A DNA stretch of 64,000 nucleotides, taken from assembly GCA_963800285.1 (NCBI GenBank), contig CAWDAL010000013.1, positions 227,395 to 291,394 of the forward strand, in the 5' to 3' direction. Shown piece by piece: positions 27,160 to 36,758 of this stretch; position 1 is the stretch's first letter, and each line of letters begins with the position of its first letter. This stretch comes from an uncultured Solirubrobacterales bacterium (GTDB taxonomy: Bacteria; Actinomycetota; Thermoleophilia; Solirubrobacterales; 70-9). The position numbers and the translations under genes were made by a program. The notes under the pieces are model-generated. The model saw nothing but the letters and a program-made list of their open reading frames with translations, was not told where the DNA came from and searched no databases.

Positions 27160-28451
27160 CTAGGCCGCGTCCTCCGCCAGGTCGTCCGCGAGCCCCTCGA
27201 CGATCCGCGGGTCGAACTGCTTGCCCGCGTTGCGCCTCAGCTCGGCCAGGGCCTCGTCCTCGGTGAGGGGACGCTGGTTGGGGAGCTTGGCGGTGAGGAC
27301 GACGTACTCGACGCAGACGGCGAGGATGCGGGAGCCGAGGGGGATGCGGTCGCCGGCCAGGCCGTCCGGGTAGCCGCTGCCGTCGTAGTTCTCGTGGCTC
27401 GAGCGGACCAGCTTCGCGACCGGGGCGAGGGCCGGGGCCGAGGCGATGATCTCGGCGGCGGCGCCGGGGAGGTCACGGAGCAGGATGGACTCGGAGGCCG
27501 GGAGATGGCTCTGGCTCTCGATGGCCGAGTCGGGGACGGAGAGCATGCCGACGTGCTGGAGGCGGGCGGCGAAGACCAGGTCGTCGAGCTGCTCGCGGCT
27601 CAGCCCCAGGGACCGGCCGAGCGACTGCACGTGGAACGAGACGGCGCGCAGGTGCGAGCCCATCTCGGGGTGGCGCTTGTTGAGGATCGCGAGCAGGGTG
27701 TCGTGGGCCTGGTGCTTCGCCGACTCGCGCTGGTGGCGGCGGTCGGCGGCCAGGCGGCGGCCCGCGATTTGGAGTGCCTCCTCCGCGGTGGTCGCGTCGT
27801 CGGGGAGGATCACGACGCCGTGGGCACGGCCAATCGTCGACTCCGCGCCGGGCTCATCGACGCCGGAGAGGAAGATCGCCATCGCGACCTCGTTCGGATC
27901 GCGCTCATACGCCGGGACGAGGGCGCAGAACTGGCCGCCCTCGATCCGGTAGGGGTGTCCCTCGAGCCCTGCGACGATCTCGGAGAGCTCCTTTCCGAAG
28001 GCGCGCAGGAGCCGGTCGCCGGCTCGGAAGCCGAGGCGGTCGCGGTAGTCGGCGACGCCCTCGAGCTCGAGCAGGACCAGGACCTGCGGCGCGCGTCGGA
28101 GGGCTTGAGGATCTCCTCGAGGTCGTGGCTGAGCTGCAGCCGGTTGGGGAGGCCGGTGGTGGTGTCCACCCGGGCGCGGCGGTGGTTGTTCTGGACGAGC
28201 CAGGTGAAGACTGCTCCGAGGAGAGCGAGGCCGAGCCAGAAGACGAGGTCGGTGACCTCGCCCTGGACGTGGTTGTAGACCAGCAGCGTGGCCGCGAGGC
28301 TGGCGAAGAGCGCGGGGCCGGCGACCGACCACTCGCGCTCGAAGGCGCGCGCCCGCTTCCAGGCGCGGCGCAGGCGAGATGGCCGCTTGTCGCTCGGCCG
28401 GTAGGCGCGGCGGGCCCGCGCGGAGGTTTTCCCAAGCGTGTGGGCTTCCAT
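27160..28451 (-). pseudogene. membrane-anchored degenerate-GGDEF / HD-GYP protein; frame broken by a 1-nt deletion near 28080-28100
   Basis: The N-part has two TM helices and DTTTGLPNRLQL...KPSDAR. It continues in the other frame as QVLVLLELEGVADYRDRLGF...RIEGGQFCAL. The HD-GYP part is HENYDGSGYPDGL. Start could be 28451 or 28508. Confidence 0.75.
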
Positions 28452-28876: not shown

Positions 28877-29161
28877 TCAGGAGGAGACGAGCCGACCGAC
28901 GGCGCCCATCAGCTCCTGCACCTGCTCCTCGCTCGCGCCCTTGCCGCCGCGCATGCAGTGGCGGACGTGGTCGTCGACCAGGGCGAGCGCGATCTTGTTG
29001 AGGGCGGCCTGCGCCGCCTCGATCTGGGTGAGGACGTCGATGCAGTAGCGGTCCTCCTCGACCATCCGCTTGACGCCGCCGACCTGGCCCTCGACGCGCG
29101 CCAGCCTCTTGAGCAGGTCGTCCTTCGACGACGTGTATCCGGGAATCTTCGTGTCGCTCAT
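28877..29161 (-). CDS. csoR: CsoR-family metal-sensing transcriptional repressor (Cu(I)-type C-H-C ligand set)
   Basis: LKRLARVEGQVGGVKRMVEEDRYCIDVLTQ...VDDHVRHC, with Cys, His and Cys in CsoR positions, 94 aa. Confidence 0.88.
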   Translation of the reverse strand: MSDTKIPGYTSSKDDLLKRLARVEGQVGGVKRMVEEDRYCIDVLTQIEAAQAALNKIALALVDDHVRHCMRGGKGASEEQVQELMGAVGRLVSS

Positions 29162-29170
29162 GTTCGCAGC

Positions 29171-29187
29171 ATACCCCTATGGGGTAT
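29171..29187. promoter_or_regulatory. candidate CsoR operator ATACCCC-TAT-GGGGTAT
   Basis: Perfect 7-bp arms with C4/G4 tracts in the 37-nt csoR/permease divergent spacer. Known CsoR operators are GC-tract pseudo-palindromes of this style. Confidence 0.65.
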
Positions 29188-29198
29188 AGTCGTCAACC

Positions 29199-30461
29199 AT
29201 GGCGGATGTGATCTCGACGATCGGCGAGGGCTTCAAGCAGTCCTTCCTGATGGGATACGAGGTCTGGTGGGCCCTCGTGCTCGGCTTCGCGATCTCGGCG
29301 ATCGTCCAGGCCTGGGTCCCGCGCGAGAAGGTCGAGTCCGCGCTCTCTGGGAGCGGCTTCCGCCCGCTGGCCAAGGCGACCGGGCTCGGCGCGGCCTCCT
29401 CGTCCTGCTCCTACGCGGCGATCGCGATCGCGAAGTCGCTCTTCCAGAAGGGCGCCTCAGCCGCGACGTCCCTCGCCTTCCAGTTCGCCTCGACCAATCT
29501 GGTCTGGGAGCTCGGCCTGGTCATCTGGATCCTGATCGGCTGGCAGTTCACCCTCGCCGAGTTCGTCGGCGGGGCCGTGCTGATCGCGTTCATGGCGATC
29601 CTGCTCCGCTTCTTCGTCTCGCCGAAGCTCGAGGAGCGGGCCCGCGAGCACGCCCGGCACGCGCAGGTCGACCACCAGCACCACGCGGTCGGGGAGCGGA
29701 TGAGCTGGCGCCAGCGGCTCACCTCCGTCCGGGCCTGGTCCGACGTCGCCCACAACTTCCGCGGCGACTGGCAGATGCTCTGGAAGGAGATCTCGATCGG
29801 GTTCCTGCTCGCCGGCTTCATCGGTCTGCTCGGCGACGACTTCTTCAACGCGCTCTTCATCAAGGACGCGCCGCCGGTCCTGAAGACGCTCGAGAACGTG
29901 ATCGTCGGGCCGATCATCGCCGTACTCAGCTTCGTCTGCTCGGTCGGCAACGCGCCGCTCGCCGCCGTGCTCTGGTCCGGCGGAATCGGCTTCGCCGGCG
30001 TAATCGCGTTCATCTTCGCCGACCTGATCGTCCTGCCGATCGTGGCCGCCTACATCAAGTACTACGGGCGGGAGTACGCGCTGCGGATCACGGCGCTGAT
30101 GTTCGTCACCATCGTGCTCTCGGCGCTCCTGGTCGACCTGCTCTTCGGAGCCGTCGGACTGATCCCCGACACGCGGCCGTCGCGCTCGGACATCTTCGGC
30201 TCGATCGAGCTCGACTACAAGCTCGCCCTCAACGTCCTCGGGCTGATCATCTTCTCGGCCCTCTTCTATCTGACGGCCCGGCGCGGGTCGACCGATCCCG
30301 TCTGCGGGATGAAGGTGGATCGCTCCAAGGCGCTGCAGGCGGTGCACGGCGGGCGCACCTACTACTTCTGCTCCGAGCACTGCCGCTCGCAGTTCGAAGC
30401 CGACCCCGAGGGGTACACGCGGAAGGGAAATGGAAGCCTCCAGCCAGATCCAGTCGCCTGA
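29199..30461 (+). CDS. COG0701/ArsP-like permease fused to a C-terminal YHS/TRASH metal-binding domain
   Basis: Multi-TM permease with conserved SSCSYAA and CSVGNAPLAA segments. C-terminus DPVCGMKVD...YYFCSEHC is the YHS/TRASH signature. Confidence 0.85.
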   Translation: MADVISTIGEGFKQSFLMGYEVWWALVLGFAISAIVQAWVPREKVESALSGSGFRPLAKATGLGAASSSCSYAAIAIAKSLFQKGASAATSLAFQFASTNLVWELGLVIWILIGWQFTLAEFVGGAVLIAFMAILLRFFVSPKLEERAREHARHAQVDHQHHAVGERMSWRQRLTSVRAWSDVAHNFRGDWQMLWKEISIGFLLAGFIGLLGDDFFNALFIKDAPPVLKTLENVIVGPIIAVLSFVCSVGNAPLAAVLWSGGIGFAGVIAFIFADLIVLPIVAAYIKYYGREYALRITALMFVTIVLSALLVDLLFGAVGLIPDTRPSRSDIFGSIELDYKLALNVLGLIIFSALFYLTARRGSTDPVCGMKVDRSKALQAVHGGRTYYFCSEHCRSQFEADPEGYTRKGNGSLQPDPVA

Positions 30462-30906
30462 CCGATCGGAGCTGAACGGGCTCGCGATCGCCGCGACGAC
30501 GCACTGCCTGATCGGCTGCGCGATCGGCGAGGTCTTGGGGATGGCGATTGCGACCGCGTTCGGCTGGGGCAATTTCCCGCAGGTGGTCCTGGCGGTCGGG
30601 CTCGCGTACGTCTTCGGCTTCGGTCTGACCTCGCTGCCGCTGATCCGCGCCCGGCTCGCACCGCGCACGATCGTCTCGACCGCGCTCGCCGCCGACACCG
30701 TCTCGATCACGATCATGGAGCTGATCGACAACCTCACCGTGATCCTGATCCCGAGCGCCCTCGCGGCCGGCCTCGGCGACCCGCTCTTCTACGGCAGCAT
30801 CGCCGCCGGCTTCGCGATCGCCTATCCGTTCGCCTTCCTCGCCAACCGGTACCTGATCGCGCGCGGCCGCGGTCACGCCGTCGTTCACCAGCACCATGCG
30901 CACTGA
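30430..30906 (+). CDS. DUF4396-like membrane protein with THCxxGCxxGE motif and His-rich C-terminus
   Basis: AATTHCLIGCAIGEVLGM plus 4 TM segments. Ends HAVVHQHHAH. Overlaps the permease gene by 32 nt. Confidence 0.75.
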   Translation: MEASSQIQSPDRSELNGLAIAATTHCLIGCAIGEVLGMAIATAFGWGNFPQVVLAVGLAYVFGFGLTSLPLIRARLAPRTIVSTALAADTVSITIMELIDNLTVILIPSALAAGLGDPLFYGSIAAGFAIAYPFAFLANRYLIARGRGHAVVHQHHAH

Positions 30907-31549
30907 GCCACGCGGGTACCTGCCGGCGCTTCGCTTCCCGGCGCTCACGCGCCTCTACGACCCCGTCGTCGCGCTGACCACCAGGGAGCGGCGGTTCAAG
31001 GAGCTCCTCATCGACCAGGCGGCGCCGGCGCCCGCCCAGCGCATCCTCGACCTCGGCTGCGGGACCGGCACCCTCGCGATTCAGGTCAAGCAGCGGGAGC
31101 CGGACGCCGAGGTGGTCGGCCTCGATGCCGATCCCGAGATGCTGAGCCAGGCCCGCGCCAAGGCGGAGCGGGCGGGGGTTGAGCTGAAGCTCGTCGAGGG
31201 CATGTCCGACAAGCTGCCCTTCGAGGCGGCGAGCTTCGACCGGGTCCTCTCGACTCTCTTCTTCCACCATCTCGATCCGGAGCCGAAGCGCCGGACCGCG
31301 CGAGAGATCGCCCGCGTCCTGCGCAGAGGCGGCGAGCTGCACGTCGCGGACTGGGGGGCGCCCGCCGACCCGCTGATGTCGGCGGCCTTCCTGTCGATCC
31401 GGATGCTCGACGGATTCGAGAACACGGCCGACAACGTCAACGGGGAGCTGCCGCGGATCTTCGAGGAGGCCGGGCTCGAGAACGCGGAGCAGACGGACCG
31501 GCTCCGCACGGTCTTCGGCACGATGGCGCTCTACCGGGCCGAGCGCTGA
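30896..31549 (+). CDS. class I SAM-dependent methyltransferase
   Basis: ILDLGCGTGTL motif I, VVGLDADPEML, and the FDRVLSTLFFHHL pattern. Confidence 0.85.
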   Translation: MRTEPRGYLPALRFPALTRLYDPVVALTTRERRFKELLIDQAAPAPAQRILDLGCGTGTLAIQVKQREPDAEVVGLDADPEMLSQARAKAERAGVELKLVEGMSDKLPFEAASFDRVLSTLFFHHLDPEPKRRTAREIARVLRRGGELHVADWGAPADPLMSAAFLSIRMLDGFENTADNVNGELPRIFEEAGLENAEQTDRLRTVFGTMALYRAER

Positions 31550-31601
31550 TTCCGTGCTGAGCACGGATGCCAGCCGAGACGGCTCGGCCTAGCTTCTACC
31601 C

Positions 31602-31868
31602 ATGAACCTGGCTCTGCTGGTTGCGGACACCTGGGGGATGCACGACAGCGACATCGGAACGGGGTGGTGGATTGTGATGATGCTCGGAATGGTTCTCTTC
31701 TGGGGTCTGGTGATCCTCGGGGTGATCTGGCTGGTCCGCGAGATGGGCAGTCCGCACCACCGCGGAAGCGCACCTGACGATCCGCTCGCAATCCTCGACC
31801 GGCGCTTCGCCGAGGGCGACATCACGGTCAAGGAGTACCAGCAGCGGCGCAAGATCCTCACCGGTTGA
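31602..31868 (+). CDS. SHOCT-domain small membrane protein
   Basis: One TM (WWIVMMLGMVLFWGLVILGVIWLV), then LDRRFAEGDITVKEYQQRRKIL, which is the SHOCT motif. Confidence 0.75.
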   Translation: MNLALLVADTWGMHDSDIGTGWWIVMMLGMVLFWGLVILGVIWLVREMGSPHHRGSAPDDPLAILDRRFAEGDITVKEYQQRRKILTG

Positions 31869-32713
31869 ACGCCGCCGAGTCGAGCACCTTCGTCTTCGCC
31901 GACCTCGCCGGCTTCACCGCGCTGACCGAGGCGCACGGGGATCAGGAGGCGATCGAGATCGCCGTCCGGTTCGCGGATCGCGTCAGGGAGCTGCTGCCGG
32001 ATTACGGGGCCGAGGAGGTCAAGTCGATCGGCGACGAGCTGATGATTCGCGTCGAGGATCCAGTCGGTGCGGTCCGGCTCGGGATACGGATCGTCGACGA
32101 GCTGGCGCTTCATGGCTCACCGCCGGTCAGGGTGGGCATGCACTCGGGGTGGGCCACCCCGCTGGGTGGCGACTGGTACGGCGCCACCGTCAACCTCGCC
32201 TCGCGCGTCGTGGACGCCGCGCGGCCGGGGGAGGTGCTGATCACGGCGGAGACCCGGCGAGAGGTGCAGGATCGTGACGGGTTCGAGATCGAGGAGCGGG
32301 GCACGCGCCGTTTCAAGCACGTCGTCGAGCCGATCCCGGTCTTCGAGGCGCTGGCCGCCGGCGGCCGGACGAGACGCCTCGAGATCGACCCCGTCTGCCG
32401 CATGGCCGTGGACCCGAGCCGGGCCGCCTCGAGCAGGCGCCGGCTCGGCCTCTCCTACTACTTCTGCTCCGCGGATTGCCGGGAGAAATTCGATGCCGCT
32501 CCGAAGAGCTACATCGCCACGACCGCCGGGGCGCGGGCGGCGCGCATGGGGTTCCTGATCAACCTCTCCGCCTTCGTGGTCGTCGGCGGCGTGCACCTGA
32601 TCTCCTGGGCGGCACGCGGCTTCACCGCGGATTCGCCGGGGATGTTCGTGCTCTTCTCCATATGGGCCGCGGCGCTGGTCTTCCACTACCGCACGGTCCG
32701 CGGGGTCCTCTGA
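31865..32713 (+). CDS. class III adenylate/guanylate cyclase domain fused to a YHS/TRASH domain and a C-terminal 2-TM module
   Basis: FVFADLAGFT and KSIGDELM (metal Asp residues). GATVNLASRV (Asn/Arg). Then DPVCRMAVD...YYFCSADC. Then two hydrophobic helices. The TTG start overlaps the SHOCT stop. Confidence 0.8.
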   Translation: MNAAESSTFVFADLAGFTALTEAHGDQEAIEIAVRFADRVRELLPDYGAEEVKSIGDELMIRVEDPVGAVRLGIRIVDELALHGSPPVRVGMHSGWATPLGGDWYGATVNLASRVVDAARPGEVLITAETRREVQDRDGFEIEERGTRRFKHVVEPIPVFEALAAGGRTRRLEIDPVCRMAVDPSRAASSRRRLGLSYYFCSADCREKFDAAPKSYIATTAGARAARMGFLINLSAFVVVGGVHLISWAARGFTADSPGMFVLFSIWAAALVFHYRTVRGVL

Positions 32714-32739
32714 CCGCGAGGCGCGCAGGCGTAGAGAAC

Positions 32740-32793
32740 GGCGCCCCCGAGCGCCGGGCCCGAACCGGGACGGGCCCGGCGCTCCGAGGCGCC
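32740..32793. terminator. strong GC hairpin between convergent genes (candidate bidirectional terminator)
   Basis: GAGCGCCGGGCCC (32749-32761) pairs with GGGCCCGGCGCTC (32772-32784) as a 13-bp perfect stem around a 10-nt loop. It is extended by outer GGCGCC/GGCGCC arms. No U-tract. Confidence 0.55.
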
Positions 32794-32827
32794 GCCCTAT
32801 ACGGCTACCCCGCAGTTCTCATTCTTA

Positions 32828-33533: not shown

Positions 33534-34388
33534 ATGGCCCACCGGATCACCTGGCTCGACGTCTTCGCCGAGCGCCCCCTCGCGGGGAATGGGCTGGCCG
33601 TGGTCGACGACGCCGACGGCGTCAGCGACGAGACCATGCTCGCCCTCGCGCAGGAGACGCGACTCTCCGAGACCACCTTCGTGCAGTCCGCCACGGCCGA
33701 TGGCGCCGACTACCGCAACCGGATCTGGGACCCGCACGAGGAGCTTCCCTTCGCGGGCCACCCCTCCCTGGGGACCGCAGTGGCCGTCGCGCGCTGGCGC
33801 GGTCTCGACGAGGCGAGCTTCGTGCAGGAGACCGGCGCCGGGCTGCAGCCGATCGACGTCCGCAAGCCGAACGGGCGCTGGGAGGCGTCGATGCTCCAGA
33901 ACGAGGCGGAGTTCGGCCAGGAGCTGGAGCGTGACGCGGTCATGGCGGCCGTCGGGTTGCGGGCCGAGGACGCGCACCCCGAGCTGCCACCTCAGGTCGT
34001 CTCCACGGGGATGCCCCACGTGATGGCGCCCGTCGCGGAGCATCAGGCCCTGGCCCGCGCGCTGCCCGACTACTCGACGATCTTCGAGCTCTCGGAGCCG
34101 CACGGCTCGATCGTCATCTACCTAGCCTGGCTCGACCCGGACGGTGAGACGGTTCGCGCGCGCTCCTTCACGCGCACGGCGGAGATGGGGGAGGACCCGG
34201 CGACCGGGTCAGCGGCCGGGCCGCTCGGCGCCTACCTGCACCAGCGCACGGACCGCGAGCGGCTGCGGATCCGCCAGGGGGAGGAGATGGGTCGCCCGAG
34301 CGTGCTCGAGGTCGAGATGACCGACGGCCGGCCGCGGGTCTCCGGCGGCGTGATCCCGGTGATCGACGGAGAGGTCAGCCTGCCTTAG
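33534..34388 (+). CDS. PhzF family isomerase-like protein
   Basis: WLDVFAERPLAGNGLAVV...LSETTFV...ELPFAGHPSLG motifs. ATG at 33534 chosen from the conserved N-terminus. Confidence 0.85.
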   Translation: MAHRITWLDVFAERPLAGNGLAVVDDADGVSDETMLALAQETRLSETTFVQSATADGADYRNRIWDPHEELPFAGHPSLGTAVAVARWRGLDEASFVQETGAGLQPIDVRKPNGRWEASMLQNEAEFGQELERDAVMAAVGLRAEDAHPELPPQVVSTGMPHVMAPVAEHQALARALPDYSTIFELSEPHGSIVIYLAWLDPDGETVRARSFTRTAEMGEDPATGSAAGPLGAYLHQRTDRERLRIRQGEEMGRPSVLEVEMTDGRPRVSGGVIPVIDGEVSLP

Positions 34389-34839
34389 CTCGGCCGCCGC
34401 GCTTGCGCGCCAGGGCGCGCAGCCTGTCCCGGACGCGGCGGCGCTTCGTCTCCAGCTCGCGGCGGAGCGCATCGATCTCATCACGGCGGCGCCGGACGAG
34501 CTCCAGCTGGTTCTCGATGTGCCCGAGCGACTGCTCGAGCACCTCGCGCCGGCGGACCGGGTCCTCGATTCCCTCGAACCACTCCCGGCGCAGCGCAGCG
34601 CGCGCGGTCTCGGCGGCGGCCAGCTCCCCGAGCTCCTCGAGCGAGACGCCGAGCAGCTCTCGCAGCCGCAGCAGCTCGCGGAGACGCTCGAGGTCCTCCT
34701 CGCCGTAGGTCCGGTGCGCCCCGGGCTCGCGGGGGTGCTCGGAGGCGAGCAGCCCGATCTCCTCGTAGTAGCGGATCGTCCTGGGCGTCGTGCCCGTGAG
34801 CTTCGCCATGTCGCCGATGCGGAGCCGTCGCTCGCTCAT
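34375..34839 (-). CDS. MerR family transcriptional regulator
   Basis: LRIGDMAKLTGTTPRTIRYYEEIGLL HTH plus a coiled-coil C-terminus. The ATG overlaps the MFS stop (ATGA). Confidence 0.88.
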   Translation of the reverse strand: MSERRLRIGDMAKLTGTTPRTIRYYEEIGLLASEHPREPGAHRTYGEEDLERLRELLRLRELLGVSLEELGELAAAETARAALRREWFEGIEDPVRRREVLEQSLGHIENQLELVRRRRDEIDALRRELETKRRRVRDRLRALARKRGGRAKAG

Positions 34840-36353
34840 GCGGCGATCCGTTCCGAGGCCGGGAGCGCGTCCGCGACCGGGTGCTTGACGTGGCGGGGCC
34901 GCAGCAGCGAGACGCCGGCGCCGATCAGCGAGGTGGCCGCCAGCACCCAGAGGGCGGTGTGCATGTTCTGGATGAAGGCCTCGAGCTGGGCGGTCGGCAG
35001 GCCGGATGCGAGGCCCGAGAAGATCTTGAAGAGGACCTCCTTGGGAACGCCGGAGGTCACCACCGCGATCACGAAGGCGATCGAGAGGACCGCGCCGGTG
35101 TTCTGCAGCATCATCCGGGCGCCCGCCGCGATGCCGCGGCGGTGCGGCGGGACGGTTCCCATCATCGCCGCCGTGTTCGGCGAGTTGAACATGCCGGAGC
35201 CGATTCCGACGATCCCGAGCCAGAGCGTGGTCTCCCAGTAGGGGGTGTCCGGCTCGAGCGTGGTCATCGCCGCGAGGGCGGCGGCGGAGACGAGCATGCC
35301 GAGCGCCGCCAGGGCCCGCGAGCCGCGGCGGTCGGCCCAGATGCCGGCGAGTGGCGAGGCGATCAGCATCCCGATCGCCATCGGGGAGAGCTTGATCCCG
35401 GCGGTGATGGGGTCGTCGCCCTGCACCCCCTGGAAGTAGAAGACGAAGATGAAGAGCAGTGCGAAGCGGGAGAGGCCGTTGATGAAGGCCGCGCCGGTCG
35501 CGGCCGCGAACATCCGGTTCTGGAAGATGGTCAGGTCGAGCATCGGGGCGCTCGCCCGCCGCTCGATCAGCACGAAGAGCGGCAGCAGCACCACGGCGAC
35601 CGCCAGCGAGACGATCACGATGGGCTCGTTCCACCCGGAGATGCCGCCCTTCGAGACGCCGTAGACGAGCCCGGTCAGGCCGACGAGGAAGACGCTCGTA
35701 CCGAGCAGGTCGAGGCCCCGCTGCGTGTCCGGCTTCGCGAGCTCGTGGAGGATGAGCGCGCCCCAGACCGCGCCGGCGACGCCGAGGGGGATGTTGAACC
35801 AGAAGACCCATTGCCAGCCGATCGAGACGAGCGCCCCGCCGAGCACCGGCCCGATCACCAGCCCGATCGCGGCGACCATCGTGTTGGTTCCCATCGCCAC
35901 GCCGAGCTGCTCTTTCGGGAAGGCGTCGGTCACGAGAGCCGCCGCGTTGGCGAAGAGGAAGGCGGCGCCGACGCCCTGGAAGATCCGCCACAGGATGAGC
36001 TCGGTCCCGGTGCCCGCGAAGCCGGCGCCGAAGGAGGCCAAGGTGAAGAGGATGAAGCCCCCGACGTAGGCCTTCTTGCGGCCGAACAGGTCCGAGAGCC
36101 GGCCGGCCGTCAGCACCAGGACGGTCGAGGAGATCATGTAGGCGAGGATCACCCAGACGAGCTCCAGCAGGCTGGTGCCGAGTGAGCGTTCGAGGTCGGG
36201 CAGGGCGATGATCAGCGTGCCCGAGTTGATCGTCGCGAGGAGCATCCCGAGACTTGTGCAGCTGAGCGCCCACCACTTGTAGTTGCGGTGGCCGGCGTGA
36301 ACTCCCGGCCGGAATCTGCTCCGTGGCTTGTCCTCCCCAATTCTTACGTTCAC
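34836..36353 (-). CDS. MFS transporter, DHA2 (EmrB/QacA-like, 14-TM) family
   Basis: LSDLFGRKK motif and the 14 hydrophobic segments. The start is uncertain: the only in-frame canonical start upstream of TM1 is GTG at 36353, inside the dyad. Confidence 0.8.
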   Translation of the reverse strand: MNVRIGEDKPRSRFRPGVHAGHRNYKWWALSCTSLGMLLATINSGTLIIALPDLERSLGTSLLELVWVILAYMISSTVLVLTAGRLSDLFGRKKAYVGGFILFTLASFGAGFAGTGTELILWRIFQGVGAAFLFANAAALVTDAFPKEQLGVAMGTNTMVAAIGLVIGPVLGGALVSIGWQWVFWFNIPLGVAGAVWGALILHELAKPDTQRGLDLLGTSVFLVGLTGLVYGVSKGGISGWNEPIVIVSLAVAVVLLPLFVLIERRASAPMLDLTIFQNRMFAAATGAAFINGLSRFALLFIFVFYFQGVQGDDPITAGIKLSPMAIGMLIASPLAGIWADRRGSRALAALGMLVSAAALAAMTTLEPDTPYWETTLWLGIVGIGSGMFNSPNTAAMMGTVPPHRRGIAAGARMMLQNTGAVLSIAFVIAVVTSGVPKEVLFKIFSGLASGLPTAQLEAFIQNMHTALWVLAATSLIGAGVSLLRPRHVKHPVADALPASERIAA

Positions 36354-36361
36354 GTAAGGAT
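36340..36361. promoter_or_regulatory. 22-nt near-perfect dyad ATTCTTACGT-tc-ACGTAAGGAT in an AT-rich divergent promoter region (candidate MerR operator)
   Basis: 9 of 10 arm positions are complementary. It is followed by TAATAT (36362-36367), 7 nt before the ATG at 36375. Confidence 0.45.
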
Positions 36362-36374
36362 TAATATTAGCGGC

Positions 36375-36758
36375 ATGGATTCGACCTTCTGGCAGGCGGT
36401 TCTCTATCTGCACCTGGTCGCGATGGCGTTCTTCCTCGGCGGCCAGCTCCTGCTCGCCGCCGCGGTGGTCCCCGCGCTTCGCGGTGAGGAGAACCGCGAG
36501 CAGCTGCGGGCCGTCGCCCGGCGCTTCGGCTGGGGCTCGCTGATCGCGCTCGGCGTCCTGATCGCGACGGGTGCCGCCATGGCGAGCCATCTCGACCTCT
36601 GGAGCGACGGCACGCTGCACGTGAAGCTCACCCTGGTCGCGGTCGCGCTGATCCTGGTCGGCGTGCACCTGCGCTACTCGCGGGCGCACCTGCTGCAGGC
36701 CGCGATCTTCCTCGTCACCCTCGCGATCGTCTGGGAGGCCGTACGGTTGGCGTCCTGA
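36375..36758 (+). CDS. small 4-TM membrane protein of unknown function
   Basis: MDSTFWQAVLYLHLVAMAFFLGGQLLLAAAVVP... Four hydrophobic helices. The stop overlaps the next ATG (TGATG). Confidence 0.6.
   Translation: MDSTFWQAVLYLHLVAMAFFLGGQLLLAAAVVPALRGEENREQLRAVARRFGWGSLIALGVLIATGAAMASHLDLWSDGTLHVKLTLVAVALILVGVHLRYSRAHLLQAAIFLVTLAIVWEAVRLAS

Follow-up and report, generated by a model that had tools for sequence, protein, structure and literature searches.

A probable copper-activated class IIIc adenylyl cyclase with a YHS domain and a predicted membrane hairpin in a putative CsoR operon of an uncultured Solirubrobacterales bacterium

A gene that joins a nucleotide cyclase to a small metal module raises the question of whether metal status can be wired directly to second-messenger synthesis and, if so, which metal and which messenger are involved. 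Such a gene lies at 31865..32713 on the + strand of the window, the whole 64,000-nucleotide stretch analyzed here (contig CAWDAL010000013.1, positions 227,395 to 291,394, assembly GCA_963800285.1, from an uncultured Solirubrobacterales bacterium). We consider it likely that this open reading frame (ORF) encodes a class IIIc adenylyl cyclase that is copper-switched through its YHS domain, membrane-anchored and last in a CsoR-controlled operon. A link between metal status and cyclic nucleotide monophosphate (cNMP) synthesis had been suggested by a reading of the letters and translations of this DNA (the sequence-only reading), and it emerges as the best-supported reading of the locus.

The cyclase-YHS protein and its characterized homologue

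The protein is made up of the following elements (aa, amino acids; TM, transmembrane).
31865..32713, + strand: cyclase-YHS-2TM protein (282 aa), with a TTG start that overlaps the SHOCT stop codon (TTGA)
31874..32308, + strand: class IIIc cyclase homology domain (aa 4-148, Pfam Guanylate_cyc)
32384..32515, + strand: YHS domain (aa 174-217), with predicted copper ligands D175, C178, C201 and C205
32525..32707, + strand: C-terminal two-helix hydrophobic hairpin (aa 221-281; motif AR.GF.IN...F...W...W...L..HYR.VR)

Profile searches placed both domains above the Pfam curated cut-offs, at 53.1 bits against 21.9 for Guanylate_cyc (PF00211, aa 4-148) and 39.2 bits against 30.3 for YHS (aa 174-217), confirming the fusion of a class III cyclase with YHS that the sequence-only reading had recognized by motif. 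The motifs quoted there lie at aa 11-18 (FADLAGFT), 53-60 (KSIGDELM) and 106-115 (GATVNLASRV) of the cyclase and at aa 175-183 (DPVCRMAVD) and 198-205 (YYFCSADC) of the YHS domain, which is, as also claimed, the second in the window, the other being carried by the ArsP_1 permease at 29199..30461 (51.4 bits, Pfam). The order of a single cyclase domain, a short linker and one YHS domain matches the cyclase-YHS family described by Linder in 2015 and, because its full-length architecture is common to more than 120 database clusters, the arrangement is not a chance one. The overlap of the TTG start with the SHOCT stop is likewise seen in the sequence as described: the junction reads ACC GGT TGA AAC, with TTG at 31865-31867 and TGA at 31866-31868 giving a 4-nucleotide (nt) TTGA overlap. 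TTG is the sole canonical start in the stretch that runs from the preceding in-frame stop to the first catalytic Asp, and the N-terminus is identical in position among the database homologues of 91-93% identity. A frameshift or fusion between the SHOCT and cyclase genes of the window was ruled out: the frames differ, both ORFs are intact and the homologues are separate genes.

The catalytic residues were examined in two alignments of full-length homologues with 53-93% identity (n = 20 and n = 121). There are six: the metal-binding D13 and D57, K53 and D103 that specify ATP (adenine), and the transition-state residues N110 and R114. All six are invariant in the smaller alignment, each is either invariant or conserved to 90% or more in the larger, and they align with those of Rv1264 and MpAC; the possibility, raised earlier, that key residues would prove substituted on proper alignment was thus not borne out. 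None of the YHS ligand positions D175, C178, C201 and C205 varies among the 121 sequences. In the AlphaFold2 monomer model (predicted local distance difference test score (pLDDT) 92.2, predicted template-modelling score 0.82), the cyclase-domain strands reach to approximately aa 164, compared with the Pfam end at aa 148. Foldseek gave three mycobacterial cyclases of class IIIc as the nearest structures, Rv1264, Ma1120 and Rv1900c (root-mean-square deviation (rmsd) ~1.5 Å over ~165 residues; probability 1.00 and rmsd 1.5 Å against both 1y11 and 5d0h), and the same three proteins are the nearest solved sequences (phmmer E 5e-20).

Between G95 and D103 the window protein has an arm of seven residues (W96-G102), aligned without gaps to MpAC, in which the 7-residue dimerization arm was used by Linder for the class IIIc assignment (PMC4626032). 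As the arm has the same length as in MpAC and the nearest structures are all class IIIc, the window cyclase is assigned to that subclass (the Linder and Schultz 2003 scheme, as applied in PMC4626032), and it is predicted to be catalytically competent and ATP-specific. It shares this subclass and fold with the pH-sensing Rv1264 of Mycobacterium tuberculosis (PDB 1y10/1y11), Ma1120 and Rv1900c, but in those enzymes the regulatory domain is N-terminal (Ad_Cy_reg or alpha/beta-hydrolase) or absent, and they have neither YHS nor membrane hairpin.

The pairing of cyclase and YHS is itself already known and biochemically characterized. MpAC of Mycobacterium (Mycolicibacterium) phlei has 233 residues, comprising a class IIIc cyclase, a short linker and a C-terminal YHS domain (Linder 2015, PLoS One 10:e0141843, PMC4626032). 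The enzyme makes cyclic AMP (cAMP); with Mg2+ alone it is inactive and 1-10 μM Cu2+ is its on-switch, with Mn2+ the stimulation by Cu2+ is six-fold, and Zn, Fe, Cr, Co and Ni are without effect (PMC4626032). The cyclase domain alone is not activated by Cu2+, activation needing YHS; EDTA (ethylenediaminetetraacetic acid) reverses the effect, and D178, C181, C204 and C208 were proposed as the copper ligands (PMC4626032). The sequence-only reading had been aware of no characterized example of such wiring; the specific, YHS-dependent Cu2+ activation of purified MpAC, to which the window protein is homologous, supplies one. The physiological role, in the words of that paper, 'remains open to speculation' (PMC4626032).

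The MpAC sequence was searched for with a Mycolicibacterium plasmid homologue as the seed. Several 233-aa proteins fit the residue fingerprint from the paper (D178, C181, C204 and C208, with 201 and 202 as the sole Trp positions), and a cluster look-up of one of them, P0395, gave accession EID14989.1, which identifies it as MpAC. It aligns with residues 7-209 of the window protein at 33% identity over 204 aa (E 5e-32), an alignment that spans both domains and ends before the tail, with the catalytic and ligand residues in register (D175, C178, C201 and C205 opposite D178, C181, C204 and C208). The two proteins thus have in common the class IIIc domain, the 7-residue arm, the six catalytic residues, the short linker and the Asp/Cys/Cys/Cys YHS site; they differ in that MpAC is soluble and ends shortly after YHS, whereas the window protein has an extra 60-residue two-helix membrane hairpin. 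By analogy with MpAC, the window protein is probably a copper-activated adenylyl cyclase. Zn(II), offered earlier as an alternative effector, is disfavored by the lack of response of MpAC to Zn and by a genomic context of copper genes.

Approximately 65 residues (aa 218-282) lie beyond YHS in the window protein, so the YHS domain does not form the C-terminal end, unlike in the family of Linder 2015. The two C-terminal TM helices noticed earlier are supported by the AlphaFold2 model (pLDDT 92.2), which together with the sequence places two hydrophobic helices at residues 221-250 and 258-281, and the tail holds invariant residues in both homologue alignments. The tail of one homologue (P0106) matches the Pfam family 2TM (PF13239) at 25.1 bits against a cut-off of 24.8; a literature search for this family gave nothing. 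With basic residues flanking both helices, the tail would form an in-in helical hairpin that tethers the enzyme to the cytoplasmic side of the membrane.

This tail is rare. In an exhaustive HMMER search of 1.84 billion representatives, 171 matches were obtained at E <= 1e-30, and a single one (P0054, covering query residues 4-282) includes the tail; among the best 150 of the 171, the other matches end by about residue 227, mostly at 216-221. As clustered by sequence, the tailed form is a single cluster at 50% identity, compared with about 170 tail-less ones. Plasmid-borne relatives (from Rhizobium, Rhodococcus, Mycolicibacterium and others) show 30-38% identity over residues 1-216, and since none of them covers at least 80% of the query, none carries the tail. 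A set of 80 related loci was drawn from GTDB species genomes, nearly all of them metagenome-assembled genomes (MAGs) of Thermoleophilia, Solirubrobacterales or Gaiellales, the nearest relative of the window being a Solirubrobacterales MAG at 93% identity (L001). In this set, 10 complete cyclase genes have the two-TM tail and 60 end within 15 residues after YHS; four have a DUF1707-type, that is SHOCT-like, tail (L062, L069, L071 and L075, genes at ~10001; the domain was confirmed by Pfam on L062 and L071, the two scanned), and two have a different membrane tail of 131 aa. The predicted membrane-anchored subfamily is confined to one narrow Solirubrobacterales clade and is new relative to the known cyclase-YHS enzymes. 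The cyclase genes of two MAGs (L010 10001-10940 and L023 10001-10710) lose the YHS or tail frame, and either a frameshift that made them pseudogenes or an error of assembly may account for this.

When the longer database representatives were scanned with Pfam, these further architectures emerged.
P0129, P0135, P0139, P0155: cyclase + YHS + DUF1707 (four separate 50%-identity clusters)
P0138: cyclase + YHS + class I S-adenosylmethionine (SAM) methyltransferase
P0164: MFS_1 + cyclase + YHS
P0230: MerR_1 + Ad_Cy_reg + cyclase + YHS (Ad_Cy_reg being the Rv1264-type regulatory domain)
The DUF1707 fusions usually end in a short hydrophobic or basic C-terminus, and P0129 also has a weak LiaF-like_C match. 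Another protein (P0180) has four tandem YHS domains.

The predicted CsoR operon and its copper context

The genes and sites around the cyclase gene are as follows.
28877..29161, - strand: CsoR/RicR-family copper-sensing repressor gene, divergent from the operon (Pfam Trns_repr_metal, 100.1 bits)
29163..29196, both strands: divergent promoter-like hexamers that overlap the operator (consensus matches only)
29171..29187: predicted CsoR/RicR operator ATACCCCTATGGGGTAT (TACCC-N5-GGGTA), in the 37-bp csoR/permease intergenic region
29199..30461, + strand: ArsP_1 permease with C-terminal YHS (ArsP_1 193.6 bits, YHS 51.4 bits), first operon gene
30430..30906, + strand: DUF4396 membrane protein (Pfam, 105.8 bits), 32-nt overlap with the permease gene
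30896..31549, + strand: class I SAM-dependent methyltransferase (Methyltransf_25, 92.9 bits, Pfam), 11-nt overlap with the DUF4396 gene
31550..31601, + strand: 52-nt gap between the methyltransferase and SHOCT genes, with two short GC hairpins (-22.3 kcal/mol, z -2.8)
31602..31868, + strand: TM-SHOCT protein gene (88 aa), after the 52-nt gap
32739..32794: GC-rich, terminator-like hairpin with no T-run, between the convergent cyclase and DUF4389 genes

Because the genes overlap or abut, no internal terminator-like site intervenes (none above chance between 29199 and 32713) and a strong hairpin follows the cyclase gene, we infer a five-gene operon of permease-YHS, DUF4396, methyltransferase, TM-SHOCT and cyclase, CsoR-controlled and with the cyclase last. 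The terminal hairpin likely marks the operon end (the fold of 32714-32827 has a minimum free energy of -67.6 kcal/mol, z -4.7, a stability reached by 0 of 200 shuffled sequences). The cyclase had been placed immediately downstream of the CsoR module; the csoR gene is in fact 2.7 kb upstream, and what stands of that claim is that the cyclase is the last gene of the same predicted operon. The permease is weakly similar to the SO_0444 Cu/Zn efflux family, and its predicted function is copper efflux or transport; the DUF4396 gene is syntenic in L001-L004, L009, L012 and L023. The YHS/TRASH domain of the cyclase is the same small Cys-rich metal module as is found in copper-transporting P-type ATPases and ArsP_1 permeases, but there it is attached to a transporter and here to a signaling enzyme.

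Both marks of a CsoR/RicR regulon are present in the window, a cognate repressor gene and the TACCC-N5-GGGTA box at the operon promoter. Across the 64-kb window the box has no second match, even when one mismatch is tolerated. It is overlapped by promoter-like hexamers on the + strand (TTCGCA-16-TATAGT, 29163-29190) and the - strand (TTGACG-17-TATGCT, 29196-29168), two such sites being found against 0.3 expected, and the best NCBIfam match of the window repressor is RicR, at 95 bits, under that model's cut-off. The N5 form of the operator consensus reportedly goes back to Festa et al. in 2011. The window operator has the arms of the M. tuberculosis ricR promoter operator (ATACCCC/GGGGTA); in that source, the printed wild-type text has four bases at the center (N4), whereas a mutagenic primer with its two changed bases restored implies N5 (PMC3944814). 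The RicR targets named there include mymT, lpqS, the multicopper oxidase gene mmcO and a permease gene (PMC3944814). The window locus and the RicR regulon of M. tuberculosis are alike in the Pfam family of the repressor and in operator arms that overlap divergent promoters. A literature search (requiring 'copper') for a CsoR regulon linked to a cyclase-YHS gene returned only incidental co-mentions.

The box recurs among the relatives, with 36 matches in 27 of the 80 loci (1.29 Mb) against 0.07 expected from Markov-1 simulations. Copper-marker genes in these loci were detected by tblastn, and the counts are listed here.
27 of 80 loci: operator box
24 of 80 loci: CsoR
17 of 80 loci: ArsP_1-YHS permease
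14 of 80 loci: CopA-like ATPase
12 of 80 loci: DUF4396
8 of 80 loci: multicopper-oxidase-like protein
Of the 80 loci, 41 contain one or more copper markers, as do 30 of the 60 tail-less loci, which are not part of the syntenic clade of the window. L066, L068 and L079 show the order box-csoR-cyclase, L016 has the box directly before its cyclase gene, and L050 has box-SHOCT-cyclase.

The context extends to more distant members of the family. On the plasmid pRetIE4803a of the alphaproteobacterium Rhizobium etli (L081 836-7286), the cyclase-YHS protein AJC81829.1 is encoded between an island of CusF-like, multicopper oxidase and outer-membrane efflux genes and AJC81830.1. The latter is a convergently encoded cyclic-nucleotide-binding protein and a candidate local cAMP receptor in R. 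etli. The MpAC gene, like the window gene, lies in a metal-resistance neighborhood beside SAM methyltransferases, in this case with an ArsR/SmtB regulator, a P-type ATPase and ars genes, and with flanking methyltransferase genes on either side whose stops and starts overlap; it differs in having neither CsoR nor a SHOCT gene beside it, whereas the window gene is preceded by a TM-SHOCT gene, a YHS-permease gene and a CsoR operator. Taken together, these contexts imply that a metal setting is general to the family and that CsoR control is lineage-specific.

Two other parts of the window may be recorded. A GGDEF + HD_5 (HD-GYP-like) protein, related to cyclic di-GMP, is encoded at 27160-28332 (- strand), approximately 0.5 kb from csoR on the side away from the operon and so near the cAMP-related copper operon; it is present in L001 too. 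At 34375-36689 (- strand), a translation that starts with a MerR-like helix-turn-helix (MSERRLRIGDMAKLTGTTPRTIRYYEEIGLL) adjoins an apparent MFS-type transporter (judged by eye from the ORF list).

SHOCT and methyltransferase neighbors

The TM-SHOCT protein has a conserved N-terminal segment (LLAD.W.MH..DIG.GWW), one TM helix (bitopic) and a putative cytoplasmic SHOCT domain, and the segment and helix together are strongly conserved (LLAD.W.MH..D.G.GWWIVMM.GM..FWGL). A homologue is encoded directly upstream of the cyclase in 10 of the 80 loci, namely in 8 of 11 tailed but 2 of 60 tail-less loci (the latter being L029 and L050; Fisher p = 6e-7, a value that treats the loci as more independent than they are, the tailed clade being a single lineage). 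The translational coupling of cyclase to SHOCT proposed by the sequence-only reading holds only in part: the adjacency is conserved, but the 4-nt overlap is kept only in the window and L001, the other orthologous pairs having gaps of 25-46 nt. Overlap-mediated coupling was accordingly rejected as a conserved feature, with only two of the adjacent SHOCT-cyclase pairs overlapping. The TM-SHOCT protein seems itself to belong to the CsoR regulon. In L036 and L051, TM-SHOCT genes 3-4 kb from the cyclase have their own operator, and a TACCC-N5-GGGTA box is directly upstream of the TM-SHOCT genes at L036 6092-6432, L051 6791-7124 and L050 9600-9942. The SHOCT-cyclase pair is also found without copper genes in L005/L083 and L008; at L083 7784-7936 (= L005 9772-9930), where there are no other copper genes, a Met-rich membrane ORF of 50-52 aa (…ACAAMMGMMVWMMVRH) lies between SHOCT and cyclase.

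The window methyltransferase and the methyltransferase half of the P0138 fusion share 37% identity over 215 aa (full length, E 1e-36), which is a much better match than that to the methyltransferase beside MpAC (35% identity over the 125-aa SAM core only). Read from sequence, the P0138 fusion is good Rosetta-stone evidence for a functional link between methyltransferase and cyclase. Class I SAM methyltransferase genes are repeatedly found next to cyclase-YHS genes, that of MpAC (L084 6385-8343) among them. The cluster at 90% identity to which MpAC belongs has 212-aa PEMT/ICMT methyltransferases among its members, probably a clustering artefact of the 23-nt overlap between the two genes. Searches of the PDB and NCBIfam for the methyltransferase substrate returned only generic class I matches, all under the cut-offs.

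Other lineages have cyclase-YHS proteins that carry DUF1707, which is SHOCT-like, or a methyltransferase domain in the same chain, and on this ground a functional partnership of the cyclase with the TM-SHOCT protein and the methyltransferase is probable. The cyclase-YHS-DUF1707 fusions resemble an in-cis counterpart of the separate TM-SHOCT gene of the window. The strongest competing explanation, possible though short of probable, is that the SHOCT and methyltransferase genes are other cargo of a copper or metal island, with an adjacency that is inherited synteny and no partnership behind it. The tailed clade is one 50%-identity cluster, such that the association of 8 in 11 against 2 in 60 is not phylogenetically independent; the overlap is limited to two loci; two tailed cyclases (L004 and L007) lack the upstream SHOCT; the independently controlled copies in L036 and L051 stand kilobases away; and the methyltransferase beside MpAC matches that of the window in its SAM-binding core only. 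The single experimental test of SHOCT as an oligomerization domain was, moreover, negative (PMC3581485). What opposes this explanation is the joining of DUF1707 and cyclase-YHS in one polypeptide, seen in four or more divergent clusters, the like joining of a window-type methyltransferase in one, the retention of the SHOCT-cyclase pair in the non-copper L005 and L008 and before the tail-less cyclases of L029 and L050, and the unusual conservation of the TM helix of the SHOCT protein.

Going beyond a probable partnership, the TM-SHOCT protein, the two-TM hairpin of the cyclase and possibly the methyltransferase might form a membrane signaling complex, with SHOCT-type modules serving as regulatory adaptors in trans or, in the DUF1707 fusions, in cis; this we regard as a speculative and rather unlikely extension. 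If true, the complex would couple membrane copper handling to cAMP output, and it would be the first defined function for the widespread SHOCT/DUF1707 domains as well as giving a methyltransferase a role in copper-cAMP signaling.

Ligand, mechanism and significance

Several observations weigh against a copper-switched, membrane-anchored cyclase within a CsoR operon. The copper activation is carried over from a homologue at 33% identity, and the neighbors of MpAC, in an ars island, are an ArsR/SmtB regulator and a P-type ATPase rather than CsoR. The isolated window tail has no Pfam match, with 2TM (PF13239) not matched even at E 10. The closest relative, L001, contains no exact operator match, and half of the related loci have no copper marker within the locus DNA examined. 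The consensus used in the promoter scan is of E. coli type, and an internal promoter or a processing or attenuation site could lie hidden in the 52-nt gap with its two hairpins (31550..31601), where the scan called neither promoter-like nor terminator-like sites. The window SHOCT ORF, at 26.8 bits, is 0.2 bits short of the Pfam cut-off of 27 (PF09851; the orthologue in L008 reaches 29.0 bits), and the tailed cyclases of L004 and L007 do without it. Finally, no CRP or cNMP-binding gene that could supply a cAMP receptor was found in the window by tblastn, a weak test made with an E. coli CRP sequence and the R. etli cNMP-binding protein.

The nature of the ligand bears most directly on the sensor function. 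The YHS domain might answer to another ligand (Ag+, Zn2+, Cd2+ or a Cys redox signal) or be a structural ribbon, in which case the cyclase would not be a copper sensor; we judge this unlikely. The TRASH/YHS domain of ribosomal protein L24e binds Cd/Zn and that of toluene-4-monooxygenase is metal-free (PMC4626032), the regulators around MpAC are not copper-specific, a plasmid copy from M. crocinum has a context similar to that of MpAC, and the repressors of the CsoR family include Ni/Co and formaldehyde sensors. Set against these points, Cu2+ was the only one of the metals tried to activate MpAC (Zn, Fe, Cr, Co and Ni being inert), and the reversal of the activation by EDTA argues against cysteine oxidation (both PMC4626032). 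The D/C/C/C ligand set is the same in the window protein and MpAC, the window repressor is nearest to RicR/CsoR and its operator has RicR arms, and multicopper-oxidase-like and CopA-like genes recur as neighbors of the cyclase.

That the protein is instead a guanylyl cyclase, or a dead pseudo-cyclase acting only as a membrane copper-binding protein, is highly improbable: the Pfam Guanylate_cyc family does span adenylyl and guanylyl cyclases, but the ATP-specifying K53/D103 and the four other catalytic residues are invariant under purifying selection among homologues of 53-93% identity, and the homologue MpAC produces cAMP (PMC4626032).

For the copper-switched adenylyl cyclase, the following mechanism is proposed. 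The cyclase domains would pair as a head-to-tail homodimer, as in the family at large; copper would bind the Asp-Cys-Cys-Cys site of the YHS domain that follows the cyclase domain and, by homology to MpAC and the biochemistry reported there, move the dimer to its active state; and cAMP would then be made. The conserved hydrophobic hairpin is predicted to serve as a membrane anchor that holds the enzyme at the cytoplasmic face. Under CsoR control the response would have two levels, with copper de-repressing the cyclase gene via CsoR and activating the enzyme itself.

The sensing of copper by YHS and its reporting as cAMP were established in vitro in 2015 (PMC4626032), and no existing knowledge is overturned here. 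What is new is the predicted membrane-anchored subfamily, the predicted membership of the CsoR regulon and the recurring SHOCT-like and methyltransferase partners. The comparative data place the family in copper-homeostasis loci of at least two phyla, with predicted CsoR control in Thermoleophilia; a small, under-studied family is thereby extended, with a possible route to the function of SHOCT. The recurring partners, namely the SHOCT-like modules, the SAM methyltransferase and, in Rhizobium, the adjacent cNMP-binding protein, give testable hypotheses on the purpose of the signal.

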